Positions 1-52,709 of a stretch of DNA of 64,000 nucleotides are shown here, one piece after another. Both the position numbers and the translations under genes were made by a program. Each line of letters begins with the position of its first letter. Positions within the stretch are counted from its first letter, which is position 1. The notes below the pieces were generated by a model. That model did no database searches. It worked only from the letters and a program-made list of their open reading frames with translations, and was not told the DNA's origin. The stretch comes from Deinococcus hopiensis KR-140 (GTDB taxonomy: Bacteria; Deinococcota; Deinococci; Deinococcales; Deinococcaceae), in assembly GCA_943327755.2 (NCBI GenBank), contig CALPYF020000013.1, forward strand, positions 15,998 to 79,997, written 5' to 3'.

Positions 1-2307
1 TCCCTGCTGCTGTTGCCCATCGCCATTGCCTTCCTGGTGCTGGGCCGATTCCAGCCCGCCGGGTACGTTGGTGCTTCGTACCTCGCGGCCATGTTGACAG
101 CCGCGCTCATGCCGGTTGGGGTGGCGAGCGTCACCACGGTGGGCCTGAGCATCCCTGCGGCTCGCCTGACGCCGACGGTGACCAAGATGAACGCTGAAGT
201 GGCCACGAACCTCCAGCGGTACCAGCGGAGTATCGATCAGGGGTGCAGCTTCACGGAGATCGGGTGCCAGCTCAACGAGCAGGTCATGCTCCCGATTCAG
301 TCCGACCTGAGCAGCCTGAAAGAACTGTTCGGGCAGATGATCCTGATGGTGGCCGCCTTGATCGTCGGGCTGTCGATTGCCGCGTCCGCACTCCGCAGAT
401 TGCCCAGTGGCATTGCTGGTCTGATCGGGATCTCTGGCGGTGGTGAGTCCTCTGGCGTGGAAACTGGAGCGCTCACGAAAGTCCTGGGCGGCGCCGCGAA
501 GCTGGCAGGCGCTGAAATGCTCATGAAAGCCGTGCAGGCCAAAGCTGTGGGCGGCATGCTCGGCAAACGAGGGAGCGGGACCTCCACTGGAGGGAGCACC
601 GCTGGCGGGGAGAGTGCCGCACCAGGTGTGCCCAGTGGATCGGTCAGTGCATCCGGCAGTGTCCCTCCTGAAACCGTCACGGAAGGCGCTCAGGGCGCGG
701 CGGCCACCAATCCCAATGTTCCGCCCGAAGCAGTCACGGCACCCAGCATGAGCACGCCGATTGGCGCGGGGTACGCAGCCTTCCGGAGTGCCCGCGAGAA
801 TGGTCAGGGACGCGCGGGCGCTGCGGTCGCGGGCGGGCGTGGCGTCGCTACGGCCGTGGGTACCCAGGCCCAGGAATCCTTCAGCACGGGCGCTAAGGCA
901 GTGCGTGCGTCCGCCGGTCAGAGCCTCCAGGCAGCTCGGGCGCAGGTTGCCGCGTCCGCCTGGGGTGGAACGGCCAACGCGCAGAAGGCTGGCCAGGCCT
1001 GGGAAGCCGGTGTCGCTGGACCCGCGCGGGCCGTGCGGAATGACATCCGCGCCATCCGCCAGGATGTTGAGACGAGGCGCGGCCCAGACAGCACCAATCA
1101 GTTCGGGCCGCGCGACGCGGACGCCGCAGAGCTGCACCCGCGGGTGACCGTTGCGGAGGCTGAGGCGACCGCGACGGCGGACCGGGCGGCAGCCATCCGG
1201 GGCGCGACTGCGTACGCCGATGACGTCCGCCCCCCGAGCGGCCGGGCCATCAGTGCCATGCGAGCCCAGGGCGGTAGTGAAGGTTCTGCCCGTCCGGGAC
1301 CCGCCATCGTGACCCCACGGCAGGCAACGCAAGACGGCCAGTCGCTCCGGGGAGAAGGAACGAACCTGCCGGCGTACTCCGGAACGCCGAACCAGGCGCC
1401 CCCACCCGCTCCGAATCCGCTGGATGTGGAAGCAGAACGGAACCGGCAACGGGCGGAGCAGGGTCCGAGACCCGCAGTGGTCCTGGGGGGCGTGCCGAGA
1501 CGGGCCATGTCCGCGGCGTCCAGTGGCGGGCGTGCGATTCCGGGGGTGGACGTGAGTCCGCTGGGCCCGAGCCCCGCCCCTGCGCCCGCACCGGCCCCTG
1601 CGCCCACGCCCGCACGTGCGCCGTCCCGGAATGAGATCTCCCAGGCACGACTGGCCAATCGTGAATCGGCAGCGGCGAGCACGCCCGCGGCAGCGCCGCC
1701 CGCTTCACCTGCTCCGGCGCCATCGGCTCCGTCAGCGCCCACCTCGACTCCGGAAGCCCCGCCTGCCCCGAGGCCGACCACTGCACCGGCGAGTGAGACG
1801 CCGTCTGCTGCTGCGCCCGCCCCAACGCCAGCACCGGCCCCGACTGCTCCAGCGACCCCGACACCGACTCCTACACCTCGTCCCACTCCCCCTGCACCCG
1901 CACCGACGCCTGCCGCGACCCCCTCGGCTCCGGCTGCGCCGACTGCACCGACACCAGTGTCTCCCGCCCCCGCACCGCGTCCAGCTCCTGCCCCGGCCCC
2001 ATCGACGCCTGCAGAGACGCCTACGGCGCCGACTGCACCGACACCAGCGTCTCCTGCTCCTGCACCCCGGCCAACTCCGGCACCGGCACCTCGTCCTACT
2101 CCTGCACCGGCACCGACGCCTGCACCTGCACCCCAGGCTGCTCCAGTCACGCCGAACCTGCAGTCAGCTGCAGCGACACCGGCAAGCACGCCCACGCCTT
2201 CATCTCCTCCAGCCCCCGCTGGAACCCCCGCCCCGGCACCCAAGGTCACCCCCGCCAGCGCCGGACAGACGAATCCGTCCTCGACGTCAGACCAGAAAGA
2301 GGATTGA
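1..2307 (+). CDS. TrbL/VirB6-like conjugal transfer membrane protein with a long Pro/Ala-rich C-terminal tail (5' end lies outside the window)
   Basis: Frame is open from base 1. Several hydrophobic segments (IAIAFLVLG, MILMVAALIVGLSIAASAL) are followed by a Gly/Ala-rich linker and about 250 aa of PAPTP repeats. Lies directly upstream of a VirD4-like gene. Confidence 0.6.
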   Translation, partial: SLLLLPIAIAFLVLGRFQPAGYVGASYLAAMLTAALMPVGVASVTTVGLSIPAARLTPTVTKMNAEVATNLQRYQRSIDQGCSFTEIGCQLNEQVMLPIQSDLSSLKELFGQMILMVAALIVGLSIAASALRRLPSGIAGLIGISGGGESSGVETGALTKVLGGAAKLAGAEMLMKAVQAKAVGGMLGKRGSGTSTGGSTAGGESAAPGVPSGSVSASGSVPPETVTEGAQGAAATNPNVPPEAVTAPSMSTPIGAGYAAFRSARENGQGRAGAAVAGGRGVATAVGTQAQESFSTGAKAVRASAGQSLQAARAQVAASAWGGTANAQKAGQAWEAGVAGPARAVRNDIRAIRQDVETRRGPDSTNQFGPRDADAAELHPRVTVAEAEATATADRAAAIRGATAYADDVRPPSGRAISAMRAQGGSEGSARPGPAIVTPRQATQDGQSLRGEGTNLPAYSGTPNQAPPPAPNPLDVEAERNRQRAEQGPRPAVVLGGVPRRAMSAASSGGRAIPGVDVSPLGPSPAPAPAPAPAPTPARAPSRNEISQARLANRESAAASTPAAAPPASPAPAPSAPSAPTSTPEAPPAPRPTTAPASETPSAAAPAPTPAPAPTAPATPTPTPTPRPTPPAPAPTPAATPSAPAAPTAPTPVSPAPAPRPAPAPAPSTPAETPTAPTAPTPASPAPAPRPTPAPAPRPTPAPAPTPAPAPQAAPVTPNLQSAAATPASTPTPSSPPAPAGTPAPAPKVTPASAGQTNPSSTSDQKED

Positions 2308-2309
2308 CC

Positions 2310-2474
2310 ATGACACACGCCCATCAAACGGCGTGGAGAGTTCGGGGAGGCGCCGTTCGTGTCTCCCCGCTCTACACCCCCACGTCACCCGCACAGCCCC
2401 GCAGCACCCACCCCACTCCTCCCGTCAGCGTGACGGTACCGGCCATCTGGCGGCGTCTCTGGAGCGCGCCGTGA
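2310..2474 (+). CDS. small hypothetical protein, 54 aa (MTHAHQTAWRVRGG...WRRLWSAP)
   Basis: AGAAAGAGG purine tract before ATG 2310. Its TGA overlaps the GTG start of the coupling-protein gene (GTGA). Confidence 0.4.
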   Translation: MTHAHQTAWRVRGGAVRVSPLYTPTSPAQPRSTHPTPPVSVTVPAIWRRLWSAP

Positions 2475-5146
2475 CGCCCTCTCAACCGGAGCGGCCGCAG
2501 GCGAACCCGCCGAGTCCCGTCGCCATTGCGGCCATGAGCAGCACCATGCTCAGCGCGTCCATCCTGCTGATGCAAGCCCTGGACGTCGGTCAGCGGTCGG
2601 CTGCCCTGATCTACAAACACACCGGACTCGCGCAGGCCCGGCAGTTGAAGGAGGACGCCATGGCCGCCCTCCTGATCTCCTGCGGGTCGGACGCGAAGTG
2701 TGGCCCCTGGCTCAGCGCGCAGTTCTCCGCGGGCATGGCCGGGTACTGGCTGGCCCTCCTGCTGCCCGTCATCGCCATTCCCCTCACGATGAAATTCTTC
2801 CCCAGTCGCAAGGCGGTCCCGCAGAAGGATCCAGGGCTTGCCCGTTGGGAAAACAAGGCGGCACTGAAGCGGTACATGTACGTCAGTGACTCCACGAACG
2901 ACCCGTTCATCGGCTTCCTCGGGTACCTCAAGAGCGGCGAGGTGGGCGGCACGTTCGATTCCAAGGACCTGCCACCCATGTACATCCCGCTGGAGGACTG
3001 GTGCCAGAACACCCTGGTGTGGGGCGGCATCCGGAGCGGCAAGACGACGTCGTTCTTCCAGCCGAACATCTTCCTGGGCGCCCACCTGGGCATCACGTGC
3101 GTGGTGTTCGACGTGAAGTGGCCGCAGAAGGACAGCGGGTTCTACGAGACGATCGGGTACTGGCATGCGCGGAAGCGGCGCACGGTCCTCCTCGCCCCGT
3201 ACGAGCCGTATGGGGCGCGCGTCAACCTGATCGCGGGCGTCTTCTCCTTCTCGGACGCACTGGAGGTGGCGGACGCCGTGTTCCCACCACCAGAGTTCAT
3301 GGAGGAACGCGGGAAGCACTACAACGACAAGAAGCGCTTCATGATCGCCGCGTTGATGTGGCTCCTCCGCACGGAGATGGGTGACCAGGCCCACATGGGG
3401 CACGTCCTGGAACACGCCATGCTGCCCGACGACCGACTGATGGAATGGGTCGAGACGGCCAGGGACGAGCAGGCGAAAGCGATCCTCACCGGGTACCGGG
3501 ACGCGGGCGAGAGCAACTTCGCAGAGACGAAGAACGGCATCATCAGTGCCCTCAAAGTGTTCTTCAATCAGGATGTGGTCCGGGCAACGAGTGGCCTTCC
3601 GACCGAGACCACACAACTGGAGGAGTGCTTCCGCCAGCCCTCCCTGGTGATGGTCGGCATCAACCAGAAGAACATGATGGACGGCTCAGGCGAGGTGCTG
3701 TTCCGACTCTACAAACGCCTGCTGGATGCAGCGGCGATGCGCGTGGCGGCGGAGCAGGGCGGCCGTCTCCGGGTACACCTGGCGTACATGATGGACGAGC
3801 TGCCCAGCATCGGGAAGATCAACTACATGATGCGGTCCCTGGGAACGCTGCGCTCGTACAACATCTCCCACCACCTTGGAATTCAGAACGACGCGCAGGG
3901 CCAACTGGTGTACGGGGAGGCGTACTGGAAGGCCATCACGACGAACGTGGTGGCCCGCGTGATCGTGTTCCCGCGCGGCATCAATGGGGATGACGCGAAG
4001 AAGATCCGGGACCTGATCGGCAAGACGACCGCCACGGAAGTCGGGGTGACGGGTAGCCGCTCCATCCGCGTTCTGGAGCACGAGGGCAGCAATGCCGTGT
4101 CCGCCAAGCTCGTCGAGCGAGACCTGCTCTCCTACGAGGAGTTCTCTCAATTCACGCTGGGTGAAGCGGTGGTGCGCGTGAACGGTCACCAGCCGATCAG
4201 GACGCAGCTCGCGCCGATGACCATGGCGACCGTGGAGGGAAGTGGCATCAAGCCAGGGTCGAAGCCCAACCTGTTGCACGGGTTCTACCAGGAGACCATC
4301 ACGCGTTGCCCGGGCGGCCTGGTGGCGTACACAGCCCGGATCATTCAGGACGGCGCACTCGCAGGCGCCACCAGTGCAGTGCCCCAGGGAGGCACGCAGA
4401 ATGCGCCGTCACGCCCCGTGCCCGCATCGGTGGCACCACAACCCGTCCCCGCGCAGGGCGCGACGGGGAGTGCAGCCAATCTGTCAGTCGCTGAAGTAGT
4501 GCAGTGGCTCCGGGCGTGCATGGCTGAACTCATCGAGATCGAGCTACAACTGCCGGAGCGGGTGGTCACGGTGCGTGTGGACGGTGAGGCAGACCCTGTC
4601 AATGGCACGAATGCTGTGACGCGATTGGTGATCGGTGGACTCCTCGAACGGACCCGGACGGCCTCTCACGCCCGCCTGACCAAGAAGGCCCACGCCGCAC
4701 TTCCGGCTGATCTGCAAGCCGATCTGGCGGACTATCCGGATGCCTACGCGGTCTACCGGTGGCTGCGGGATAACGCCCTGAGCATCAGCGGTACGCCCGA
4801 ACGTGCGGCGTATGAGGCCCAGTGCGCGAGCACCGAACCCCCCACTACGCCGACCGAGCCTGCCGCTCAGGTGATCGACGGGACCCTGCTCTGCACTATG
4901 ACCCGCACGCGGGAGATCTTCAGGGGTGAGGGCGTCCTCCGGTTCCCCCAGAAGCGGATCGGCAGTCGGGACCACAACCAGATCCCCGTGCAATCACTCG
5001 CTGCGACGGCGGCCGCCGTCCGTCAGGCGCGGGCCGCAGAAGCTGAACCGACTGGGGAGGGCAGGCTGTCCCGGAAGGAGCAGAAGCGGCAATCGAAGGT
5101 GGACCTCGTGAACAGTGTCGTGGGGGGGCCACCCAGCTCGCCCTGA
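2471..5146 (+). CDS. virD4: type IV secretion coupling protein, VirD4/TraG family (891 aa)
   Basis: N-terminal TM segments, Walker A GGIRSGKT, Walker B YMMDELPSIG, and the RSYNISHHLGIQNDAQ motif typical of T4CPs. Start placed at GTG 2471; the upstream part of ORF 1616-5146 is an off-frame reading of the Pro-rich gene. Confidence 0.85.
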   Translation: MTPSQPERPQANPPSPVAIAAMSSTMLSASILLMQALDVGQRSAALIYKHTGLAQARQLKEDAMAALLISCGSDAKCGPWLSAQFSAGMAGYWLALLLPVIAIPLTMKFFPSRKAVPQKDPGLARWENKAALKRYMYVSDSTNDPFIGFLGYLKSGEVGGTFDSKDLPPMYIPLEDWCQNTLVWGGIRSGKTTSFFQPNIFLGAHLGITCVVFDVKWPQKDSGFYETIGYWHARKRRTVLLAPYEPYGARVNLIAGVFSFSDALEVADAVFPPPEFMEERGKHYNDKKRFMIAALMWLLRTEMGDQAHMGHVLEHAMLPDDRLMEWVETARDEQAKAILTGYRDAGESNFAETKNGIISALKVFFNQDVVRATSGLPTETTQLEECFRQPSLVMVGINQKNMMDGSGEVLFRLYKRLLDAAAMRVAAEQGGRLRVHLAYMMDELPSIGKINYMMRSLGTLRSYNISHHLGIQNDAQGQLVYGEAYWKAITTNVVARVIVFPRGINGDDAKKIRDLIGKTTATEVGVTGSRSIRVLEHEGSNAVSAKLVERDLLSYEEFSQFTLGEAVVRVNGHQPIRTQLAPMTMATVEGSGIKPGSKPNLLHGFYQETITRCPGGLVAYTARIIQDGALAGATSAVPQGGTQNAPSRPVPASVAPQPVPAQGATGSAANLSVAEVVQWLRACMAELIEIELQLPERVVTVRVDGEADPVNGTNAVTRLVIGGLLERTRTASHARLTKKAHAALPADLQADLADYPDAYAVYRWLRDNALSISGTPERAAYEAQCASTEPPTTPTEPAAQVIDGTLLCTMTRTREIFRGEGVLRFPQKRIGSRDHNQIPVQSLAATAAAVRQARAAEAEPTGEGRLSRKEQKRQSKVDLVNSVVGGPPSSP

Positions 5147-19541: not shown

Positions 19542-20846
19542 TCACAGGGGTGCGTTGAGCAGGCTCTGGAGAAGTGGCAGCGCCTCTGCGGCGGGTCGCC
19601 GGGCCGCCGCAAGCACAGCATGCACCTGCTGGTCTGTCAGATCCTCGAAGGCCATCAGGCCCATCGGCGACAGAGGCCGGCCCAGGCGCACTTTGATGAG
19701 CGTGAGGGCCATGGTTCTGGGGTTGGTGTCCAGGTCCGGCGCGGCGTCCGAGATTGGCGTGGCCTTACGCTTGGGTGCGACCGCCTTTTGGGCGCTCGTT
19801 CGGGGCTGGGGGATGCCCTGCGTCCACTTTTCAGGGTGACGGATGCCGTCGACGATGCTGGCGGGGAGGCTGCGGGGTTTCCAGCCGGTGGTCAGGGCCA
19901 CGTCGATCTTGCGCAGCACTGGCTCAACCCGCTCCGGATGATCGGAGGCCAGGGATTCCGCCACGGGCCGGGTCACGCCCCGCGCGATGAGGAGTTCGGC
20001 CAGCTCAGGTTGCGGTGCCGACACGAACTGGTAGGTCACGGTGCCGCTGAACCCGCGTCCTGTAAAGGCGGCGCCTTTGAGGTACCCCTGCTCCTGCAGG
20101 TGCTCGTGCGCGAGGGTCAGGACGCGCCGGGCATTGTCCGCGCGGGTTTCGTCGATGCCGCAGGCGCGCACCCAGTCCTTCATGGGTACGGTGAGTTCTG
20201 AGGCCAGTGAGCCGTCCGCCTGAATGCGGTGCGCCTGAATGACGCGGTACAGGCTGCGGGCGGGGGCCTGCTTCAGTCGGGCGAGAAGTTCCGCGTCGAG
20301 GATCTGGTAGAGCCCGGCGCGAATGGCGTCCGCGAAGGTGGGACTGAAGATGACTTCAATGGGGAGTCGCTCGTCGAGTTGACGGTGCTCGAAGGGTTGC
20401 CGTGCGCCGCCGGAATCCACGAGGCGCAGTTCGCTGATGATGCCGACGACGCTGGTCGCGCCGGTGTGCCGCTGGTCCGTTTCGTTCCAGCTGGTGCGCA
20501 CCATACTCCAGCGCACGCCAGCCAGGCGGAGCAGCGCTTCACGGAGTCGCACATACGACCGGCCGCCGACGTCCAAGCCAGCCATGCGCAGGATGTCGGT
20601 GGGTTTGACTTCAATCCGGTCTCCAAGGGGGCATCCGGCTCGGAAGAACATGGTCTGCAAGGCCAGGAGCACGTCGCTGTCGGTTCCGTGGGGCCGGCCG
20701 TTGTTGGCGTGCCCTTCGATGCGGTAGAGGGTGTTGCCGATGGCGTAGTCGACAGTCCATGAGGTGGATTCTTTCGGAAGGACCTTCTGCACGCTGAAGA
20801 TGCCCGCCAGGGTCATGTCCAGTTCGTTGATTCGCAGGGGGTCCAC
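19542..20846 (-). CDS. repA: plasmid replication initiator protein (RepA-like, 434 aa)
   Basis: PHGTDSDVLLAL, LREALLRL and ARSLYRVI motifs of Deinococcus-type initiators. Adjacent iteron arrays. TATCAT at -12..-7 of GTG 20846. Confidence 0.85.
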   Translation of the reverse strand: MDPLRINELDMTLAGIFSVQKVLPKESTSWTVDYAIGNTLYRIEGHANNGRPHGTDSDVLLALQTMFFRAGCPLGDRIEVKPTDILRMAGLDVGGRSYVRLREALLRLAGVRWSMVRTSWNETDQRHTGATSVVGIISELRLVDSGGARQPFEHRQLDERLPIEVIFSPTFADAIRAGLYQILDAELLARLKQAPARSLYRVIQAHRIQADGSLASELTVPMKDWVRACGIDETRADNARRVLTLAHEHLQEQGYLKGAAFTGRGFSGTVTYQFVSAPQPELAELLIARGVTRPVAESLASDHPERVEPVLRKIDVALTTGWKPRSLPASIVDGIRHPEKWTQGIPQPRTSAQKAVAPKRKATPISDAAPDLDTNPRTMALTLIKVRLGRPLSPMGLMAFEDLTDQQVHAVLAAARRPAAEALPLLQSLLNAPL

Positions 20847-26876: not shown

Positions 26877-26981
26877 TCCAGCACGTGTAACTCAAGGAAG
26901 TGGCCGCAGATGCGGCCACCTTTCCCTTCGAGAACGTCAGAGATGGCCTGTCCGCGATGCGGCCCGGCCCCGCCAGCGCGC

Positions 26982-27716
26982 ATGTTGTATTTCGCGAGCA
27001 CGAGCAGTGACTTGGACGACCTGGACGCCCACCCGGACATTGGGGTGATGACCGGACCGCGCGTGGGTGGACTGGGCAGCATACTGACGTCCCAGCGCCC
27101 CTGGGCGTCGGACTGCGACGCCCTGAGCAAGCACGGCTTCCACTATGACGAGTTCGTCGAGCACCTGCGGCGCGTGCACGACCCGGAGTTGATCGCCCGC
27201 TGCCAGTTCGTGGTGGTCCCCGATGTCCCCGGTTGCGGACGCAGCACCCTCGCGGCATTCCACGCGGCCGCGCCGGAACTCGCCGAACTGGGGTTCCCCC
27301 TCGCGTACTGCCTGCAAGACGGTGCAGAGGAACTGGAGTTGCCGCCCTGCGACGTGGCCTTCCTGGGCGGCAGTGACCCCTGGCGGGAGGCGGTTGGCGC
27401 CGCGCTCCTGGAACGGGCGGCCGCTGAATGCCTGCGAACCCACGTGGGCCGCGTGAACAGCGCGCGGCGCGTCCGGCACCTGAGTTTCTGCCATTGCGAC
27501 AGCGTGGACGGCACGTACGTGGGCTTCCGAGGCGTGGAGCGGGGCGCGCGGGAGATCGGGTCGTGGCTGCGGGGCGCGGCGGATGAGAAGCTGCTGGGCG
27601 CGGCGGACCTGCGGGCCATGACGCTGGACCCGGCGCGCGTGGCGCGCTGGCGGGAGCGGCGTCGCCCCGCCCCGCGGTGGGGCGAGATGCAGCCCGGCAC
27701 TGAGCGGCTGTTCTGA
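26982..27716 (+). CDS. TGT/DpdA-like TIM-barrel protein (244 aa)
   Basis: WASDCD, VVPDVPG, CLQDG, FLGGS, HVGRVNS and DSVDGT resemble the motif series of phage/plasmid transglycosylase-like proteins. Degenerate hairpin upstream. Confidence 0.55.
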   Translation: MLYFASTSSDLDDLDAHPDIGVMTGPRVGGLGSILTSQRPWASDCDALSKHGFHYDEFVEHLRRVHDPELIARCQFVVVPDVPGCGRSTLAAFHAAAPELAELGFPLAYCLQDGAEELELPPCDVAFLGGSDPWREAVGAALLERAAAECLRTHVGRVNSARRVRHLSFCHCDSVDGTYVGFRGVERGAREIGSWLRGAADEKLLGAADLRAMTLDPARVARWRERRRPAPRWGEMQPGTERLF

Positions 27717-29723: not shown

Positions 29724-29804
29724 GCCAGGCCTTGCCGGGACGAACAAGAGGAGGCGATATCGCCTCCTCTCAAGCTATTCGCCTTTTCCAGTTCGCTCTT
29801 GCAT

Positions 29805-29894
29805 CCCGGGGTTGATGCGCGTCAACCCAGCTCCACACCCGGGGTTGATGCGCGTCAACCCAGCTCCACACCCGGGGTTGATGCGCGTCAACCC
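29805..29894. repeat. three tandem 33-bp repeats with a palindromic core, candidate parS
   Basis: CCCGGGGTTGATGCGCGTCAACCC(AGCTCCACA) at 29805, 29838 and 29871, 81 bp after parB. Confidence 0.85.
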
Positions 29895-29945
29895 TGTTGT
29901 AAGGAAGCTATGGCCCGTGACCAGGTCACGGGCCCAGTCGGGCAC

Positions 29946-32900
29946 ATGTCACTGATCAGCCTGTTCGATGCCGTGAAGCCCGCAGCCCAGCCTGCCCGCA
30001 AGGCCAGCCAGGGCAAGGTCAAGAGCAAGGGCGCCGCACACCCCACTCAGGCCGCCCCCGCTGTGATCACAGTGGATCCAGCCCTCGACGCATTCCGGAT
30101 GCGCTCCGCGCCGACGTACGCTCCCGCCTCCAGCGCCGAACCCTACGGCGTAGAGGCTCTGCCCATCGTCAGCACGGACGCTCGCCTGAAGGCCAACCAG
30201 GCCGTCCGCGACATCCTCGCCCGCGGCGTCACCCCCGCCGACCACGCCGCCCTGCGCGCCTGGAGTGGTGAAGGCGGCCTCGGCGAGCACAGCGCCAGCA
30301 CCAGCGCCTTCTACACCCCCGGCGAACTCGTGCAGGTCGCGTACGACCTCAGCCAGGCGCTCGGCAGCACCCGCCGCATCCTCGAATTCAGCTGCGGTGG
30401 CGGCGCCTTCCTCGCGCGCGCACCCAAGTTCAGTGACGTGGTCGGCGTGGAACTCGACGAGACCAGCGCCGCCGTCGCGCAGGCTCTGCACCCTCACGTG
30501 ACCGTCTGGAACGCCTCCTTTGAGACGTACACCACGCAGAGCGAGGACGCCCCGTTCGATCTCGTGATCGGCAACCCGCCCTTCGGCACACGCGGCGCCC
30601 AGGCGAGATTGCACCGCCCCGACCTCCGGCAGGCGCACTGGTACTTCGTCCTCGAAGGCCTGCGCCGCGTCACCCCCGGCGGCCTGATGACCGTCGTCGT
30701 GCCCGAGAGCATGCTCCGCGTGGACAGCGACCGCCCGCACCGCGAGGCGCTGATCGACCTCGCGCACCCCCTGATGCTGTCCGCCGTGCCCGAAGGGGCC
30801 TTCCGGGCGGCCGGGGCGGGCGTCACCACCGTCCTGCTGGTCCTGCGCCGCCACGATGCCAGCGTGACCGAAGCGCTGGCCGCCCTCACCCACGAGGAGC
30901 AGGCCCAGCTGCGCGAGCAGCGCCTGACGCACAGCGGGTACCTCCGCCAGATCGTGAACGGGGAAGGCGTCTTCTACCGCAGCGGGACCGAGTGGAAGCT
31001 CCAGTACGCCGGGGAACCCCTCGGCACGCCCCGCCACCAGGCCAAGATCGGGGACGGCCGCTTCGGCGACCCCGTGTACCCCGGTGGACTGCGCGTGGAC
31101 CTGGCGACCCTCACCAAGCAGGCCAGTGCGCGCGTGAACGACATCCTGACGCTGCCCGGCGCGCTCGCGGCCATCCAGACCCTGTTCGGCTCGAAGCCCG
31201 TGCCCGGCAGGCCCGCCCCCAGGCGCACCCCATCACGGACGGAGAGACCAGTGCGTGCGGCACGTACCGCTTCCAGGGCGGCCACTGGCAGTACGGCTCG
31301 CACCTGAGCAACCCCGCCGTACTCAGCGCCCTGACCGTCGCCCAGGCCATCACGGCGGCCCGCACTGGCCGGCAGCACGCCGCACGCGACACGGCCCTGC
31401 GCCTGCACGACACCCACCTGAGCACGCACGGCGCGTACGACCTGACCCTGCTGCGCCGCGCTGCAAAATCCGCGCCCGCCCTGCACGCGCTCGTCGAAGC
31501 GAACGGGGACGTCCCGGCGCTCCTGACCGAACTCACCGACCGGGAACCCCCCATCACGCCCGGCACGGTGGGCGAGGTCGCCCACCAGCTCGAAGCGTAC
31601 GGCCTGCTCACCATCACGAGCCTCGCCCAGTACGCTCAGGTCACGGATGGGGACGCCGCCGCGCACCTGCTCGCCCAGTACGCCTTCACCGGGCACACGT
31701 GGGAGGCCGCCAGCACGTACTACCGGGGCCGCGCGCACGAGAAGGCCCGCCTCGCCGAGACCCTGGCCGCCGATCACACCGGCACCGAGCGCCAGGCCCT
31801 CCTGCAACAGGCGCAGACCTGCCGCGAACGCGCCCTCTGGGTGGACATCACCGACATGACCCTCGAGGCGCGGGACCCACTGATCCCCGAGCACGTCCTG
31901 GCCGACTGGGTGAACGCCAACCTCGGGACCTGCGTGGCCGTCAAGCGCAACTCGTGGGACGCCGACGGTGCGCCCGTGAACCTAATCCAGGCGGTCCGCG
32001 GTGAGCACGGTGTCACCCTGCGCCTGCGCAACGCCCTGGATGACGAGCTCGCCCTGAAGGAGCGGCAGGCCATCAGTCCTGGGCGCGTGCGGGAACTGGA
32101 GGCGTACCTGAACTTCCGCACGCCGGTTGAACCGGTCGTGAACCAGGACGTGAAGACGCCCGAGCAGATCACCGCCGAACGCCACGCGCATCAGGCCCGC
32201 GCGGTACAGTTCGAACGGCAGCTCGCCGCGCACTTCCGCACGTGGCTGCTCGGCAGTGAGCACGTGGGCACGGTGGAACTCACCCTGAACGAGCACCGGT
32301 ACGGCCTGCTGACCGCCACGCCCGACCTGCGCCCCCTGACGCTCCCCCGGTACCAGGGGCCGCTCGCGCATCCCTTCCAGGCCGGACACGTCCGCGCCGC
32401 CGCGCGTATGGACGGCGTCATCCTGGACTTTTCAGTTGGGCTTGGGAAGACTTTGACCGCGCTGATGCTGGCTGAACTGCTTCTCCAGTCTGGCCGCGCC
32501 CGCCTGCCCGCGGTGGTCGTGCCGCTCTCCCGCCTGGGGGACTGGGTCATGAACGCCGCCACGGCCCTCCCGGGGTTGCGGATCAGCGTGATCGGCGGGG
32601 AACCCGTCCGTGCGCCGGACGGCAGCGTCGCGCTGGACGAGGACGGCGAACCCAGGGTCCTGACGGACACCGGGGACCGCCGCCGCGCGAAGATCGCCGC
32701 GCTCCTGACCAGTCCCCCGGATCTCGTGATCTTCACGTACGAGGCGTTCGAGATGACCCCCATGCTCGAAGAGACCCGCAAGAAGTACGTGCAGAGCGAC
32801 GAGACCCTCATGAGCGCGCTGGCCACCACGACCACGTTCGACGAGCGGCACCGGAAGATGGGCGGGCACCGCGCGCTCGCGGCCGGGGAGAAGTTCACGC

Positions 32901-35164
32901 AGCGGCACCTGGGGCGCGTCAAGGTCGCCACGAGCACCGACGTGCCCTTCGAAGCGCTCGGCATCGACGCGGTCCTGTGGGACGAGGCGCACGCGCTGAA
33001 GAACACGTACGCCGCGCCCGCCGTGTACGGGGACTCCAGCCCGAAATTCCTAGGTGGGGGAGGGGAGAGTAACCGCGCGCTGGACGGCAACCATAAGGCC
33101 CGCTTCATCCGCGAGCGTGGCGGCTGCACGGTTGCCCTGAGCGCCACGTGGTTCACGAACAGCCCTCTGGAGATCTGGAACATGCTCTCCCTCGTAACCG
33201 ACGCGCTGCCCGCGTACGGCATCACGAATGTGCAGGCCTTCACCGCCCGCTTCTGCGTGATCGAACCCCGCCTGATCACCCTCCCGGAAGGGGACGTGGA
33301 GTTCCACTCGTGCGTCGTGGGCTTCCGGAACCTGGACGAGCTGCGCGCCATCATCGGCCAGCACGTCATCCGGGAGACGGAGGACACCTGCCAGATGCAC
33401 GACCGCGTGGGGATGCCCCTGCCGCCCCTGACCACTGTCGAGCACCTGTTCGACCTGCACCCGGTCGTGCAGGACGAATACGACGCGGAGCAGGCCACCA
33501 TCAGCGAGGCTGAGAGTGACGGGGAGAAGCACCTGTTCTCGATCTTCTCCCGCCTGAGCAAGCTCACCCTGCACCCCCCGCTGATGAACGTCCAGGCCCC
33601 GAATGCCCGTTTCGCGGCGTGTGTCGAGGCCTGCCTGGCAGCCCGTGCCCAGGGTGGCCGGAATGTCGTGTTCATGTACACCGGCGGCGAAGGCGGCATG
33701 ACGTACACGGCCCTGCGCGACCAGCTCATCGCGGCCGGGTACCCCGCCGGTGAAATCGAGATCATCACCGCGAGCACGCACCAGGGTGGGGAACGCCTGA
33801 CGGTCGAACGCCGGTTCCGCCGTGGCGTCCTGACCTGCGTCATCGGCAGCAGCGTGATCGAACAGGGCGGCAATTACCAGGGTGCCACCGACCTCCACCA
33901 CCTCGATTACCCGCACCACCACATGGCGTTCGTGCAGCGCATCGGACGCGGCCGCCGTCAGGGCACCTGGGTGAAGGAAATCCGCAACCACGTGTACTTC
34001 GCCCGGGGCAGCTTCGACGTCATCCGCTTCCAGAACATGATGGGCAAGAAAGGCTGGGCGCAGCAGGTGTTCGACCCCACCCTCACCAGCTGCGAGAACA
34101 CCGACGTGGGCTTCGACGGCGAGGAACTGGCCGTCATGCTCAGCCGCGACCCGGACGCCACCCGCCACGCCATCCGCGCCAAGCGGGAGGCCCGGCAGGC
34201 GGAGAGTCACGCCGCGAGCCTGCTGGCAGACCTCACGGTCATCCGCGAGTACCTCGAAGCGCTCAGCCTGCTGGAGAAGCGCGACCGGACCGCCCGCAGC
34301 CGCGAGCACGGCCCGAGCACGCAGGACGTCGCCGGGATCAATCGCCTGGTGACCGCCCTGCGTGGCCTGCACGGTCAGGTACAGGCCCTGCGCGCCGCGG
34401 CGAACCCCATGGCTGCCCTCACCCGCCTTCAGCAGCCGATCCTGTGGGTGGAGGGCCTGCCCATCCACGCTGGGCTGACGTTCGAGCACCAGGGCAACCC
34501 CGTGACCGTCCGGGACCTGCGCGGCGCAGACACGGGCATCCGGGTCACGGACGTGGGTGGGAACGTGGACGTCATCGCGCACGTGGACCTTGCCAGGGCC
34601 CGGCACGTGCAGCCCACCCGCACGGAAGGCGCGTACGGTGCGGAAGGCCTCACCCGCCTACGCGCCGAACTTCAGGAGCGCATCCTGAGCGCTGAAGTCG
34701 CGCCCCAGACACCGGCTCAGCCTGCGGTCCCCATCCAGCTCGCCCCGGTGACGGAGATCCAGTCTGTTCCAACGCAGGACGCAGCTCCGGTGCAGCAGAC
34801 CCAGGCGGGCCCGCTGGTCGCGGCAGCAGACCCGGTGGTGGAGACCACGCCCACCCCGCGCCCCGCACCCGCCGTCCACACCGTCCAGCGCCCCCCGCTG
34901 CGCCTCCGGTACGGGCTCACCGTGACCGAGCAGCTCCCCGCCCGCCCCGCGCAGGTGTACGCCATCCAGGGCGACACCCTCACGCCCGGCGCGTTGGACG
35001 GCTGCCCGCTCGTGATCGTCGAGTACCGCGCCGAGCGGGACGTACGGATGGTCACGCTGGTGTTCCCGGACCCCACCCGCGCGGCGCAGACCCGCACGCT
35101 CCTCCGGCAACAGGACCCCCGAGTCCGCGCCCGGATGGATCAGCTGCTGCTCGCGGCCATCTGA
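29946..35164 (+). pseudogene. DarB-like N6-adenine methyltransferase plus SNF2 helicase, split by a single frameshift near 31190
   Basis: 5' frame carries LEFSCGGG and NPPF; 3' frame carries DFSVGLGKT, WDEAH, SATWFTNS and QRIGRGRR. The coding frame switches at TTCGGCTCGAAGCC (LFG|LEARARQA). May be a sequencing error. Hairpin-led at 29946. Confidence 0.8.
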
Positions 35165-47942: not shown

Positions 47943-48464
47943 ATGTTCAACCCCAATGGATACGACATCAAAGGCGTGAAGTACCTCCCCACCCACGACG
48001 GCGTCGCCTTCACTGGCACGCTGTACAAGGACGGCAAGCGGATCGGCAGCGTCGAGAACGGCGGTACCGGCGGCCCCAACTGCGCACACTTCGATACGCG
48101 TGAAGGCGGGACCGCCTTCCGCGCGTGGGTCGCCACCCTCGGCACGCACACCTACCCCGCCCAGAATGGCAGACCCGAACTCACCGTGCCGTTCGACGAG
48201 GAGACCGCCATCGAGTGCCTGCTCCAGATCGACGACGCGCGCCGCGAGGCGCGGGCCTTCGACCGGCGAGCCCAGAAGGCCATCGTCTACCGCGAGGCGG
48301 GCGACGGACCCGATCAGTACCGCAGCGTGAAGTTCGCGTCCACCCTGACGCCCACCCGCGCCCTGGCCGCCTACCGGGCCAGTGCCCCCTGGTGGTCCCG
48401 CGTGACGGAGGTCTGGCACATCGGCGAAGGCTGGAAGCTGGAACGGGCTACACCCCAGGACTGA
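47943..48464 (+). CDS. hypothetical protein (173 aa)
   Basis: CAGGAG RBS; beta-rich N-terminus FTGTLYKDGKRIGSVENGGTGG. Confidence 0.75.
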   Translation: MFNPNGYDIKGVKYLPTHDGVAFTGTLYKDGKRIGSVENGGTGGPNCAHFDTREGGTAFRAWVATLGTHTYPAQNGRPELTVPFDEETAIECLLQIDDARREARAFDRRAQKAIVYREAGDGPDQYRSVKFASTLTPTRALAAYRASAPWWSRVTEVWHIGEGWKLERATPQD

Positions 48465-48508
48465 CCAGGGCTGGCCGGGGGGGTTGCCCCCCGGCCCACC
48501 TGCTCTTG

Positions 48509-49339
48509 ATGACTCTCCACGGCTTCATTCCGGTCCTCACCCACCGCTTCCCACTCGACGCGCTCCTCACCCCGTACGTGGAACGTTACGCGCCTGCCGC
48601 GCTGATCAGCGCCGCCGAACTCCGCGCCGCGCCCGGCGCACCCCTGCCCGCCTTGCCCCTGATGATCGACAGCGGCGGGTACCAGGCCCTGGACGCCCAC
48701 GCAACCGTCGTAGACACCGGACCGTTCGCGGCGCTGCACGTGCCCGGCGCGGTCCCACTCACCCCACTGGACGTGTATGACCTGCAGCGGTCCGCGCGGG
48801 CTGCCGTGTGCTTCACCCTGGATTTCCCGTCTCCCGCTACCGCGACCACCGACGAACGTGTCCGCCGCCTCCACCTTGGGGAACGCAATGCCCTGTGGGC
48901 CCTGTCCCAGATCCGCCCCGGCACCCTGTACGCCAGCGTCCAGCCCGGCCAGGACCTCACCGCGGTTCTCGCTGCCCGCCCGGACGGCATCGCCCTGGGC
49001 GGCCTCGCCCCGCACAGCGCCGACCGCGACCGCCTCCGGCACGAGATCCGCACCGTCCGCGCCCAGCTCCCCGCCGGACTGCCCCTGCACGTGTTCGGCC
49101 TCGGGCACCCCGACTCCATCCACGCAGCCCTTTCGGCCGGCGCGACCACCGTGGACTCCAGCAGCCCGCAGCGCATGGCCGCCAGCGGCCGCGCCTGGAC
49201 GGGGGAGGTCATTCCGGACGCCGCCCCACACGAACGCCTGCGGCTCGCCGTCACGAACCTCCTCACCGCCCTGCACGCGGACGTGCCCCTCGCCCTGCAC
49301 CCCGCGTGGCGACCCCTCACCCCCAGGAGAAGCGCGTGA
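48509..49339 (+). CDS. tRNA-guanine transglycosylase (TGT)-fold protein without the C-terminal Zn domain (276 aa), hairpin-led
   Basis: MIDSGGYQ, TLDFP, GIALGGL, HVFGLG and VDSSS; all TGT catalytic-position Asp residues are present. Confidence 0.85.
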   Translation: MTLHGFIPVLTHRFPLDALLTPYVERYAPAALISAAELRAAPGAPLPALPLMIDSGGYQALDAHATVVDTGPFAALHVPGAVPLTPLDVYDLQRSARAAVCFTLDFPSPATATTDERVRRLHLGERNALWALSQIRPGTLYASVQPGQDLTAVLAARPDGIALGGLAPHSADRDRLRHEIRTVRAQLPAGLPLHVFGLGHPDSIHAALSAGATTVDSSSPQRMAASGRAWTGEVIPDAAPHERLRLAVTNLLTALHADVPLALHPAWRPLTPRRSA

Positions 49340-51408
49340 CCAGGCCAGCCCCGATCACCGCCCTTCCCGTCCTCTCCGGCCCGGACCTCGCCCTGGCGTG
49401 CGGCGTCACCACGCTCCCCGTCAGCGCCCTGATCACCAGCCCCACCGGGAGCGGCAAGACCCACCTCGCCCGCGAAGCCGCCCGGCACGCCCTCACGTGC
49501 GGCGAACGCGTCATCGTGACCGTGCCCACCAAAGCCCTCGCGCACGAGATCGCCCGCACCTGGGCGGACTTGCCCGGCCGCGTGCAGGCCTTCACCCGCG
49601 ACCAGCCCAGCCCCCCGTACCGCGCCGCGCACGTCCTGATCATGACGCCCGAACGCCTGGACCTCGTGACGCGCCGCTGGCGCCGCCACCACCCCTGGCT
49701 CGCGCGGGTGGGCCTCCTGATCACCGACGAGATCCACACCATCAGCGACCCCGCCCGCGGCGCCGCCCTGGACGCCGCCCTCACGCGCCTGCGGGCCACG
49801 CTGCCCCTCCTGCGCGTCCTGGCCCTGACGGCCACCTGCGGGAACCCCCGCGTCCTCGCCGACTGGCTGGGCGCCCTTCACATTGGAGGTGGCATCCGAC
49901 CGATGCCACTTACCTGGACTGCCAAGACCGTCCGCGCAGTCGCTGACAAACCCGCCGCCCTCCAGCGGGTGCTCACGCCCGGGGAGTCCACGCTGGTGTT
50001 CGTGCACGGCCGCCAGCGGGCCGCTGATCTCGCCGCGCACCTCAAGAAGGCTGGGCATGCCAGCGCCGCGCACCACGCGGGCCTCACGCCGGGCGTGCGT
50101 GCCCAGGTCGAACGCGATTTCCGTGAGGGCCGTACCCGTGTCCTGATCGCCACGCCCACCCTGGAAGTCGGCGTGAACCTCCCCGCTGAGCACGTCGTTC
50201 TGTACGACCTCACCACCTTCGGTCTCGATGGGCGACAGGCTCTCACTGTGAACGCTGCGTGGCAGCGCGCCGGACGCGCCGGACGGCCCGGCGCCACGCG
50301 CGCCCACGTCACGGTGCTCGGCACCCGCGCGGAGCAGCCCGGCCAGTACGAACGCGGCCGCTTCGAACCGCTCAGCAGTCCCCTGAGCCGCGGCGAGCAC
50401 CTGCTGGGTTTCCTGCTCGGATGCGTGGACGGCGGGTACGCCCGCACCCGCGCACAGGCGACCCGCATGGCCCAGCAGACCTTCGCGGCGCACACCGGCA
50501 CCCTGAACGCCCCTCGCGCCGTGGCGACCCTCCTCCAGCAGGGTGCCCTCGCCGACCACGGGGGCGTGCTCAGCGTCACGCCACTGGGCCGCGTGGCCAG
50601 TCAGGCGCTGCTCCCTGTGCCCGTCGTCGCGGCCGTTCGCGCCCTCCCACAGGACCCGACGGTGCTGGACGTGCTGCTGGCCGCCGCCGCGCATGTCCGC
50701 CTGCCCAGCCTCGGGGACGAGTCGCGCGCCACCCTCGTCGGCGCCCTGATGAGCGTTCCGTCCCGCACGCTGGACGCGGGCACCGCCCCGCCGGACGCGG
50801 TGATCGGCGCGGCCCTCCTGCACGCCACCACCCACCACGGGGACGACGGGGCCGCGGAGCTGAGTGGCCTGCACGAGCCAACCCTGACGGCCCTGCGCGA
50901 GGAAACTCTCCGCATCGTGAGCGCCTGGCACGCCCTGTCCCCCAGCATCAGCGTGAACCTCACCCGCGTGAGCCTCGCCGCGCAGCTCCCTCCACTCACC
51001 GCGACCCTCGCGCTGCTCAGCGGGGTCGGGCAGGTCACCGCCCGCGCACTCAGCGCCGCCGGCGTCCCGGATCTCCCCACGCTCGCCCGCACGCCCCCCG
51101 CGCAGCTCACCGCTGCCGGATTCACGCTCCGCACCGCAGAACGGCTGACCCAGGCTGCCCAGGCATACGGCCCGCTCACCCTGAGCGAACCCACCCCCGC
51201 GCCCCGCACCCGGACGGTCCTCGCCGACCCGGCCCGGCTCGCCCGCGCACGCCTCTTGACGGTCACCCCCACGACACACGGCTGGACGGTCACCGGCGGA
51301 AGTCAAGCACGCACCGTCACCCGCCAGGGCGAGGCCTTCATCTGCGACTGCCCGGATGGCGTGCAGCTGTGCAAACACCTCTTGGCCGTGGGATTGCACC
51401 TGGCGTGA
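49336..51408 (+). CDS. Ski2/Hel308-like DEAH helicase with HhH and C-terminal SWIM zinc finger (690 aa)
   Basis: SPTGSGKT, PTKAL, TPE, TDEIH, TAT, HHAGL, ATPTLEVGVNLPA, QRAGRAGR and SWIM CDC..CKH. GTGA overlap with the TGT-fold gene; AGGAG RBS. Confidence 0.9.
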   Translation: MTRPAPITALPVLSGPDLALACGVTTLPVSALITSPTGSGKTHLAREAARHALTCGERVIVTVPTKALAHEIARTWADLPGRVQAFTRDQPSPPYRAAHVLIMTPERLDLVTRRWRRHHPWLARVGLLITDEIHTISDPARGAALDAALTRLRATLPLLRVLALTATCGNPRVLADWLGALHIGGGIRPMPLTWTAKTVRAVADKPAALQRVLTPGESTLVFVHGRQRAADLAAHLKKAGHASAAHHAGLTPGVRAQVERDFREGRTRVLIATPTLEVGVNLPAEHVVLYDLTTFGLDGRQALTVNAAWQRAGRAGRPGATRAHVTVLGTRAEQPGQYERGRFEPLSSPLSRGEHLLGFLLGCVDGGYARTRAQATRMAQQTFAAHTGTLNAPRAVATLLQQGALADHGGVLSVTPLGRVASQALLPVPVVAAVRALPQDPTVLDVLLAAAAHVRLPSLGDESRATLVGALMSVPSRTLDAGTAPPDAVIGAALLHATTHHGDDGAAELSGLHEPTLTALREETLRIVSAWHALSPSISVNLTRVSLAAQLPPLTATLALLSGVGQVTARALSAAGVPDLPTLARTPPAQLTAAGFTLRTAERLTQAAQAYGPLTLSEPTPAPRTRTVLADPARLARARLLTVTPTTHGWTVTGGSQARTVTRQGEAFICDCPDGVQLCKHLLAVGLHLA

Positions 51409-51466
51409 TCGACGTGACGTCCTCGCAGCACTGGCCCACACCGGGGGTGTGGGCCAGGACGGCAGC

Positions 51467-51973
51467 ATGCTTACCCCTCTGACGATCAGCGTCCCCGGCG
51501 CTCACAAGCCCGCTCCCACCCCTCAGCAGGCCCTCGAGGACCTCCGCAAGGTGGCCCGGCACCGCCCCGCCCTGCGCCTGCGCCTCAAACGCCTCGCGCG
51601 CCTGCTCGCCGCTGGCCGCGCCCTGAAACTCACCGGCGACCCCTGCCGCGTCCAGGCCACCGTCACGGCCCTGCGCGCCTACGCCGCAGAGGGACCTGTG
51701 GTGCTCACGGCCGTCACCCCCGACGACATCCTCGCCGGTCTCACGCGTGGACCCGTGCGGGTCAGCGTGCACGACCAGGACGGCTGGCCCATCTGCGAGT
51801 ACCGCCTGTCGCACGCCACGGCTGGCGTGGACATCCTCTGCCGGGACGGCCGCAGCCGCTTCCTGCCACGTGACGAGTTCCGCGCGCAGTTCCGCCTCGC
51901 AATCTACACGCTCCGCGTCCCCGCCACGTGGGTCGCCGAAGATGCCCCCGTTCAGCAGGAGCAGGCCGCGTGA
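51467..51973 (+). CDS. hypothetical protein (168 aa), hairpin-led
   Basis: ATG 10 nt after the hairpin. Confidence 0.7.
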   Translation: MLTPLTISVPGAHKPAPTPQQALEDLRKVARHRPALRLRLKRLARLLAAGRALKLTGDPCRVQATVTALRAYAAEGPVVLTAVTPDDILAGLTRGPVRVSVHDQDGWPICEYRLSHATAGVDILCRDGRSRFLPRDEFRAQFRLAIYTLRVPATWVAEDAPVQQEQAA

Positions 51974-52709
51974 CAGTCACCCCCACGTCAGGCACCGTGC
52001 ACCCTATGCCGCACCAGATCGCGTACACCGACGCCAGCCTCGCCGTTCAGGACGTGTACGCCCTGGCGGCCGTCGTGAACGGCGTGACCATCACGACCAC
52101 CGCGCGGGCGCACACCACCCAGCAGGCTGAACTGCAGGCCGCACGCCTCGCGGTCCAGCACGCCGATCCCGGCCCCCTGCACCTGCATGTGGACTGCATT
52201 GCCACCGCGCACGTCCTGACGGGACTCGCGCGGTCCAAGTCGCCCCTGACCGAACCTGCGCAGGAGCTCCTCCAGCTCGCCGCGGAACGGGGCGTCGCCC
52301 TGCACGTGCAGTGGATTCCCAGAGGGGAGAACGCCGCCCACCACCCGGCGCATCACACCGCCGGGCACATGCGTACCCACCGCCGCGCCCGCCGGGTCCA
52401 CCTCCCCCCACTCCCCCCCAGACCCCCGGTCTGGTCGTCCGCCTGCGCCACCACCCGGACGGCACATCCGCCTGCGGCGGTGGACTGCGCGCGGTCGCCC
52501 ACGGGCCCCTGGCCGCCCTGCGCATCCTGATCGACCTCGCGGGCCGCGCCCCGCCTGGCGTCCGCGTCCGGGTCCGCGGCGTGCCGCCCTATGCCGCGCA
52601 CCTCTGGACCCACCCCGAGCACGCGCCGGACGACCTGCTCGCCTCCCTCAGTGCAGCCCGCTGCACCCTCTCCCTGCGCGGCAGCCGACTGCACTTGATG
52701 ACCCCGTGA
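51970..52709 (+). pseudogene. RNase H-like protein, apparently frameshifted in a C7 run (52413-52419)
   Basis: AYTDAS, TTQQAELQA, HVDC and QWIPRGEN are RNase HI-like motifs. Coding signal continues in the -1 frame (PQTPGLVVRLRHH...) to 52709. Confidence 0.6.

Follow-up and report, generated by a model that had tools for sequence, protein, structure and literature searches.

The window analysed here, 64,000 nucleotides of contig CALPYF020000013.1 (C13) of Deinococcus hopiensis KR-140 with a G+C content of ~ 70%, carries on its forward strand a two-gene unit in which a minimal, zinc-less protein of the tRNA-guanine transglycosylase (TGT) fold is followed by a helicase. The first gene (48509..49339) encodes the TGT-fold protein P0001 (276 aa) and the second (49336..51408) the Hel308/Ski2-like DExH helicase P0002 (690 aa; pI 10.6). 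The stop codon of the TGT gene (TGA, 49337–49339) overlaps the start codon of the helicase gene (GTG, 49336–49338). A Shine-Dalgarno-like GGAGAAG precedes this GTGA overlap (49327..49339, plus strand), its GGAG lying 5 to 9 nt upstream, and the overlap is predicted to couple translation of the TGT and the helicase. Two GC-rich hairpins on the plus strand, both without a U-tract, bracket the unit. One (48473..48496; 10-bp perfect stem, 4-nt loop, −34 kcal/mol, z −3.3) falls between position 48464, where the preceding gene stops, and the first codon of the TGT; the other (51431..51457; 12-bp perfect stem, 3-nt loop, −31.9 kcal/mol, z −2.6) is located directly 3′ of the helicase stop. Consensus scans called neither hairpin as an intrinsic terminator or a promoter. 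A first-pass annotation of this DNA had described a 276-aa TGT fold, led by a hairpin and overlapping at GTGA a 690-aa helicase with helix–hairpin–helix (HhH) and SWIM domains. We recovered the reading frames, the overlap, the domains and the leading hairpin as described. Compared with the D. grandis copies, the ratio of nonsynonymous to synonymous substitution rates (dN/dS) was 0.15 for the TGT gene and 0.21 for the helicase gene. Both genes are under purifying selection.

P0001 was assigned to the TGT fold by Pfam, AlphaFold2 modelling, Foldseek comparison and a phylogenetic tree. The Pfam TGT model (PF01702) matched it with an E-value of 1.6e-17, at profile positions 76 to 270 of 357 only. 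AlphaFold2, given 26 family members, modelled P0001 with a pLDDT of 94.1 and a pTM of 0.91, and the top Foldseek matches of this model in the PDB were the Tgt enzymes of Z. mobilis and T. maritima (TM score ~ 0.73). Aligned with Z. mobilis Tgt, the stretch D54-S55-G56-G57 of P0001 corresponded to the D102 motif, L104-D105 to D156, G164-G165 to G229-G230, F196 to M260 and D216-S217 to the D280 nucleophile. From these correspondences, D54 is predicted to be the general acid/base, D105 to read the guanine edge, G164-G165 to line the pocket and D216 to act as nucleophile; H194 and F196 probably flank the base. Residues with the same roles in DpdA are Asp95, Phe99, Asp130, Leu236 and Asp256 (PMC10164549). 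Ten positions were invariant in an alignment of 26 family sequences (D54, S55, G56, G57, D105, G164, G165, H194, G197 and D216), and F196 was near-invariant, with rare F-to-L changes.

The DSGG, LD, GG and D-x motifs are thus common to P0001 and bacterial Tgt, its best structural match. Bacterial Tgt, however, is ~ 100 residues longer and contains a zinc subdomain, and its Tyr258 and Met260 are replaced in P0001 by His and Phe. P0001 had no CxCxxC motif and a single cysteine, and its C-terminus lay ~ 60 residues past the nucleophile. The CxCxxC motif was kept in DpdA-type proteins and in the host's own Tgt (as CNCYAC). The pI of P0001 (7.3) is near neutral. The first-pass annotation had noted both the retention of the DSGG, LD, GG and D-S catalytic positions and the loss of the zinc-binding tail, and the mapping on Z. 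mobilis Tgt and the cysteine count bear this out.

P0001 scored far below the thresholds of the established TGT families. It obtained 35.6 bits against Tgt (TIGR00430; equivalog cut-off, 306.75), 29.1 bits against ArcTGT (TIGR00432; cut-off, 350) and 21.8 bits, over residues 160 to 224 only, against DpdA (NF041059; cut-off, 200). A true DpdA domain from another Deinococcota genome scored 488 bits. A Pfam search found in P0001 none of the C-terminal PUA-type domains of ArcTGT. The small-TGT family profile scored roughly equally against all solved TGT types: 58 bits with ArcTGT, 53 bits with T. maritima Tgt, 49 bits with Z. mobilis Tgt, 38 bits with QTRT1 and 37 bits with DpdA (7UI4). A tree of 85 sequences was obtained with a quick IQ-TREE search; several of its branches are long, and its deeper branching is not reliable. 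One clade (SH-aLRT 99) united the small TGTs, all of the natural TGT–helicase fusions described below and 17 metagenomic representatives. It stood apart from the clade of bacterial Tgt (SH-aLRT 100), from a haloarchaeal group and from the DpdA-type proteins. Judged by scores and tree, P0001 falls outside housekeeping Tgt, ArcTGT, canonical DpdA and phage DpdA, and sits with its relatives in a well-supported clade apart from them. Clustering with housekeeping tRNA Tgt, which the first-pass annotation had said would speak against its interpretation, was seen neither in the tree nor in the HMM scores. The family is rare: among 1.84 billion representatives, 93 matched its profile below 1e-30.

Likeness to DpdA is real but partial. 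DpdA of S. Montevideo (PDB 7UI4) and P0001 have in common the TIM-barrel TGT fold, three invariant Asp residues and the His, Phe and Ser around the nucleophile; an ATP-hydrolysing partner and, in the loci of P0001 relatives, linkage to preQ0 genes are shared as well. The signature columns are mixed, with DSGG as in tRNA TGTs (DCGA in DpdA-type proteins) and with H194, F196, S214 and S217 as in DpdA-type proteins, where bacterial Tgt has Tyr, Met, Met/Leu and Cys. DpdA also possesses a zinc site (CXCX2CX22H) and four insertions that are conserved in its family (PMC10164549), whereas P0001 has no zinc motif and, with 276 aa as against ~ 400, is too short for the insertions. Because the zinc site and the defining insertions are missing, P0001 is not a member of the DpdA family. 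The partners differ too: DpdA works with the ParB-like ATPase DpdB, whereas P0001 is paired with, and its relatives are sometimes fused to, a Hel308–SWIM helicase.

The DpdA-like TGTs of phages and viruses (DpdA1-4; PHROG 887 and 1279) are likewise small TGT folds on mobile elements, some of them 240 to 295 aa long. P0001 had no match in PHROGs, no tblastn match in 50,697 phage records and a single weak, partial match among IMG/VR viral contigs, and we reject a phage origin on these grounds. Viral TGT-like structures fitted the P0001 model less well (TM 0.5–0.64) than cellular Tgt did.

Could the small TGT be an accessory tRNA- or RNA-guanine transglycosylase with an RNA helicase as partner? 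Its DSGG motif is that of tRNA TGTs and not the DCGA of DpdA, its top PDB matches by both sequence and fold are tRNA enzymes, and the Ski2-like helicases include RNA helicases. Yet the genome already encodes a full housekeeping Tgt (520 bits), and P0001 is without the zinc subdomain and N-terminal elements that in Tgt contribute to tRNA binding and dimerisation. The low scores against the Tgt and ArcTGT equivalogs, the separate clade and a helicase with a DNA-type HhH domain 5, a SWIM finger and best family matches among DNA helicases also argue against an RNA substrate, which we consider very improbable.

A second comparison is with Cap10 of type IV CBASS, for which transfer of a protein-conjugated 7-deazaguanine onto a target has been proposed; the small TGT might handle such a conjugate in the same way. 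Both proteins are zinc-less TGT barrels, and H194 of P0001 precedes the catalytic Asp by 22 residues, the spacing of H226 and D248 in Cap10, a likeness taken from the published description of Cap10 only (bioRxiv 10.1101/2025.04.06.647259). The same His, however, occurs in DpdA-type enzymes. The Cap10 operon includes a CD-NTase gene and the QueC-like gene cap9, whereas neither a CD-NTase nor a Cap9-like gene was found beside the small TGT in any locus examined, and PADLOC gave no CBASS match. A Cap10-like activity is therefore, in our estimate, highly unlikely.

P0002 contains a Walker A motif (GSGKT, with K41) and a DEIH box. Pfam placed a DEAD domain at aa 31–169, Helicase_C at aa 205–319 and HhH at aa 560–609; HHH_5 scored 26.6 bits, just below the cut-off of 27, which orthologues exceeded. 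At the C-terminus, a SWIM zinc-finger motif (C670-x-C672-x6-C679-x-H681; 51343..51378, plus strand) was weak in Pfam (11.3 bits), and several orthologues and fusions passed the cut-off. The corresponding pattern CxCx7-9CxH was invariant in 26/26 helicase orthologues. The closest relatives of P0002 were Hel308-type DNA helicases and other Ski2-like enzymes: its best PDB match was A. fulgidus Hel308 (2P6R, 132 bits), and HamB obtained only 46.8 bits. P0002 shares the DExH core, Helicase_C and HhH domain 5 with archaeal Hel308, and orthologues of P0002 also matched the ratchet domain. It differs from Hel308 in the extra, invariant SWIM finger and in its linkage or fusion to a TGT. Since its score against the Hel308 equivalog model (NF040935) was 134.3 bits, with a cut-off of 1200, P0002 is by sequence a relative and not an orthologue of Hel308. 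With a pI of 10.6 beside a near-neutral TGT, the helicase appears to be the component through which the pair chiefly binds nucleic acid.

Hel308 is a family of fork-repair helicases, and its match to P0002 brings DNA repair into consideration. Here, the helicase would target stalled forks or damage and the TGT would swap a damaged guanine for an intact one; the pair would be a module for stress tolerance, carried on a plasmid in a genus that resists radiation. The fully conserved guanine pocket and the presence of a UvrD helicase and an RNase H-like open reading frame (ORF) in the same plasmid tract are consistent with this. Repair leaves unexplained, however, the operon linkage to queC/D/E, yhhQ and DpdA and the co-occurrence with QueC (see below). 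Nor does it suit a family that is patchy (14/111 Deinococcus genomes), plasmid-borne and also present in defence-like islands of cyanobacteria and Verrucomicrobia. We regard a repair role as quite unlikely.

The pair was found in three phyla. The order TGT then helicase occurred in D. grandis, D. ficus, D. xinjiangensis, a Deinococcus metagenome-assembled genome (MAG) and a second copy within the D. hopiensis KR-140 genome. Loci of Nostoc, Picosynechococcus, other cyanobacteria, Verrucomicrobia and metagenomes contained a second helicase gene (hel2), a gene of ~ 200 aa on the opposite strand, the P0002 orthologue (hel1) and the small TGT; the ~ 200-aa product between hel2 and hel1 is a putative helix–turn–helix (HTH) regulator. 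Deinococcota, Cyanobacteriota and Verrucomicrobiota thus share the helicase linkage but not the gene order, and 4-nt overlaps of the TGT and helicase genes were also present in cyanobacterial, metagenomic and D. ficus loci. In a reverse look-up, each of the three members of the helicase family that were examined on long contigs had an adjoining or fused TGT. Fusions were found as TGT–helicase (P0039, P0040, P0042, P0043, P0044, P0059, P0211 and P0215) and in the opposite order, helicase–HhH–SWIM–TGT (P0055), most of them represented by two or more contigs or by several members of a cluster. That natural fusions exist in both orders argues strongly for joint action of the two proteins as a single unit, and, judged by these loci, the linkage of the small TGT to the helicase is obligate. 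The absence of the pair elsewhere, the other outcome that the first-pass annotation had named as damaging to its interpretation, is contradicted by this distribution and by the fusions.

Two further Deinococcus copies may be degenerating. The second D. hopiensis KR-140 copy, on contig C23 (L016 6218–9093, minus strand), was 51% (TGT) and 46% (helicase) identical to that of the window, and its helicase was split into ORFs of 349 and 329 aa; this copy may be decaying. Plasmid P2 of D. gobiensis (L005 11995–13287) encodes a 430-aa protein annotated as a DEAD/DEAH helicase and consisting of the TGT and the first ~ 200 helicase residues, apparently what is left of the pair after truncation.

Beside the hel2–HTH–hel1–TGT module we also observed, on the opposite strand, a gene pair encoding a PD-(D/E)XK nuclease and a UvrD-type helicase (L002 11258–15940; L020 8148–11696; L113 12345–15848; L115 12014–17096), with 40–52% identity between phyla. 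A gene of ~ 380 aa adjoined this pair in L002 and L115, and GmrSD genes were close by in two loci. The larger unit that includes the nuclease and UvrD genes may be a defence system.

The evidence that ties the small TGT to 7-deazaguanine came from the genes around its relatives and from the host genome. One genome (G069) carried, on one strand, the small TGT, yhhQ, queD, queE, queC and a "long DpdA", that is, a DUF6884/YaaA-like domain fused to DpdA. Another (G066) had hel1–TGT–yhhQ–queD and, at a distance of 9 kb, a long DpdA. A cyanobacterial MAG (L021) had queC–long DpdA–HTH–hel1–TGT–hel2, the long DpdA occupied the same place on Nostoc and Picosynechococcus plasmids, and queE and queC were 5 kb from the TGT in a verrucomicrobial locus (L019). 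In three loci (L113, L115 and L020), no other TGT or DpdA lay within 7–10 kb of the small TGT, which is therefore the sole candidate modifying enzyme there.

Among 111 Deinococcus species genomes, the small TGT was present in 14, two of them with decayed copies, and QueC in 45. QueC was encoded in 12 of the 14 carriers and in 33 of the 97 non-carriers (odds ratio, 11.6; Fisher p = 3e-4, not corrected for phylogeny). The p-value overstates the case because related genomes are not independent.

As the first-pass annotation had stated, the window is devoid of preQ0 genes: it held no queC/D/E and no yhhQ, and the sole FolE match of the genome was on contig C1. The D. hopiensis KR-140 genome as a whole encodes Tgt (520 bits), QueA, QueF and FolE and contains two queC/D/E sets, so that by gene content the host has the whole preQ0/preQ1 pathway. 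The earlier proposal that the module draws on 7-deazaguanine chemistry of the DpdA type has thus gained comparative support from the que operons of relatives, the QueC co-occurrence and the host pathway, even though P0001 itself is no DpdA. The part of it that named host preQ0/preQ1 as the supply agrees with the complete pathway, and use of such a base by the enzyme is still something we infer. The host genome gave no match to DpdB or DpdD, a weak negative since control genomes were silent too.

The same genome carries a separate, lower-GC island on contig C38 (L015 5338–14487) with two more TGT-fold genes. One strand encodes a 327-aa DpdA-like protein with CxCxxC, a 260-aa protein and a 1017-aa putative ATPase; the opposite strand encodes a long DpdA, queC, queE, queD and yhhQ. 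DpdB and DpdD were not detected in the island. Its layout recurred in a second species of Deinococcus and in a genome from a different genus of the same taxonomic order (L097; L110/L111), and it looks like a non-canonical Dpd-like system.

The retained chemistry of the TGT, its missing zinc subdomain and its bond to a helicase are most simply explained by a model in which the pair acts as a helicase-coupled DNA-guanine transglycosylase. The enzyme would draw on preQ0 or preQ1 of the host, and the helicase would take the place of DpdB. We put the probability of this model at roughly 45%. The basic Hel308-like helicase, with its HhH domain and SWIM tail, would bind DNA and open or thread it at the expense of ATP. 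In this way, guanines that are single-stranded or flipped out would be offered to the TGT barrel, which is near neutral and has no zinc site. Exchange would proceed by double displacement: D216 would attack C1′ and the guanine would leave; D54 would then activate N9 of the incoming 7-deazaguanine base (host preQ0 or preQ1), and the covalent intermediate would be resolved. Double displacement is the mechanism of DpdA, by Asp95 and Asp256 (PMC10164549). DpdA also needs the ATPase DpdB, for which its authors suggest a helicase-like role in making single-stranded DNA (PMC10164549). The helicase of the pair may stand in for DpdB and, at the same time, for the zinc subdomain of DpdA and the insertions with which DpdA binds DNA. 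Plasmid DNA would carry the product as a mark, which would protect it from restriction or match a 7-deazaguanine self-mark of the host. What we observed, all of it by comparison, comprises the TGT fold, the preserved residues of the active site and base pocket, the missing zinc domain, the helicase linkage and fusions, the preQ0-gene linkage in relatives and the purifying selection; the DNA substrate, the identity of the incoming base, writing over excising and the biological role we infer from them. Insertion of preQ1 by TGT is irreversible, and for this reason, of the writing, excising and sensing roles that the first-pass annotation had left side by side, excision of 7-deazaguanine is chemically the least likely.

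Several points weigh against a helicase-coupled writer. The sequence by itself does not separate a base exchanger from a glycosylase. A DUF6884–DpdA fusion encoded in the same cluster makes a second writer look redundant. Two of the 14 Deinococcus carriers of the TGT, probably including D. ficus, are without QueC. The known anti-restriction 7-deazaguanine writers are phage enzymes, and this family is missing from the phage records searched and nearly so from viral contigs. Outside Deinococcus, finally, the relatives are found in settings that resemble defence islands (GmrSD, LlaJI, AbiE, PD-(D/E)XK and UvrD), and these settings fit an immune function at least as well.

An immune function could take the form of an effector or sensor. 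The helicase would scan foreign DNA, and the TGT would either excise guanine from unmodified DNA, leaving abasic sites or covalent TGT–DNA adducts, or recognise 7-deazaguanine in the invader; 7-deazaguanine placed by a DpdA-type writer would exempt self DNA, and the PD-(D/E)XK and UvrD proteins would finish the work in the larger clusters. A separate writer (DUF6884–DpdA with queC) is indeed encoded in the L001, L002 and L021 clusters and ~ 3–9 kb away in L097 and L098. The PD-(D/E)XK and UvrD pair adjoins the module in the four loci given above, GmrSD, LlaJI and Abi genes are neighbours, the family is missing from phages, and the host itself carries the DpdA-like island on C38. Glycosylases directed against phages with 7-deazaguanine are known (bioRxiv 10.1101/2025.10.29.685425). 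Hachiman uses Hel308-like helicases, and P0002 matches HamB (PADLOC E-value ~ 1e-22; 46.8 bits in the PDB search).

The Deinococcus module, however, stands alone. A full-length long DpdA was present in 3/14 carriers and its N-terminal part only in one more, and because the module is mostly without a long DpdA, a guanine-excising enzyme in Deinococcus would be without a self-mark. D54, the general base required in the second half-reaction, that of base insertion, is invariant. The nuclease partner of Hachiman, HamA (DUF1837), was not found by the pair in the Deinococcus loci, nor was any other nuclease linked to it there. PADLOC assigned no known system, and the only match of the TGT was a weak one to DpdA (E-value 2e-4), on which basis we reject membership of the TGT in a known defence system. 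A BREX-related "BRC" system does contain a TGT, together with GNAT and HerA (PMC12839542), in a different architecture. We rank a defence effector or sensor first among the alternatives to a writer and consider it possible, if on the unlikely side.

In a more specific and, to us, doubtful version, the small TGT would be the killing arm of a self/non-self system based on 7-deazaguanine; the Hel308–SWIM helicase would move it along DNA, and it would attack ordinary guanines of unmodified foreign DNA by guanine loss or TGT–DNA adducts. DNA modified by DpdA would be immune because the glycosidic bond of 7-deazaguanine resists the TGT reaction. If this were true, one fold would supply both the writer and the restriction enzyme, with discrimination by bond chemistry and no nuclease.

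By its gene content, the window is part of a conjugative plasmid, with genes for a T4 coupling protein (1616–5146), RepA (19542–20846, minus strand), MoxR, a VWA protein and a UvrD helicase. The stretch has 95% protein identity to plasmid pDEGR-2 of Deinococcus grandis. The TGT–helicase pair is part of a tract whose genes all run one way and which also encodes an N6-methylase and an SNF2 helicase and contains PRTRC genes, the RNase H-like ORF and the UvrD helicase gene; a PRTRC ThiF gene and two PRTRC-B copies are just 5′ of the pair. In the Deinococcus loci, the pair had no conserved neighbour: almost no other genes of the window, and no PRTRC genes, travel along with it. We therefore rejected a functional tie to PRTRC, PRTRC-B and the other neighbours not being conserved beside the pair in other Deinococcus loci. 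An ORF at 26877–27716 was considered as a second TGT/DpdA-like gene and rejected (no Pfam match; hhalign probability 0.03 against the small-TGT profile).

In the same tract, a large ORF for an N6-adenine methylase and one for an SNF2-type helicase overlap or form a fusion (29799–35164). Successive units of the tract each seem to have a GC-rich hairpin in front. The ORF downstream of the helicase probably starts with an ATG near 51467, directly after the hairpin, rather than at 51356. Two genes 3′ of the helicase, the ORF of ~ 200 aa (51928–52530) gave a weak RNase H match (21.6 bits; cut-off, 25.8).

To our knowledge, no enzymes other than the DNA-guanine transglycosylases (DpdA with DpdB in bacteria, and the DpdAs of phages) swap a base in intact DNA after replication. 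We found no description in the literature of a module of TGT and Hel308–SWIM helicase, and by the comparisons above the small TGTs are a new TGT clade with what appears to be a new kind of ATPase partner. In this clade, a minimal TGT barrel that has lost nucleic-acid-binding parts of its own is wired or fused to a Hel308-type helicase, which would make the role of ATP in base exchange directly testable. A compact, helicase-guided base exchanger could also serve for site-directed labelling of DNA. If the defence alternative were true, the module would represent a new type of restriction that acts through a transglycosylase. If the pair is a writer, the biology of 7-deazaguanine in DNA would extend to plasmids of Deinococcus, cyanobacteria and Verrucomicrobia.

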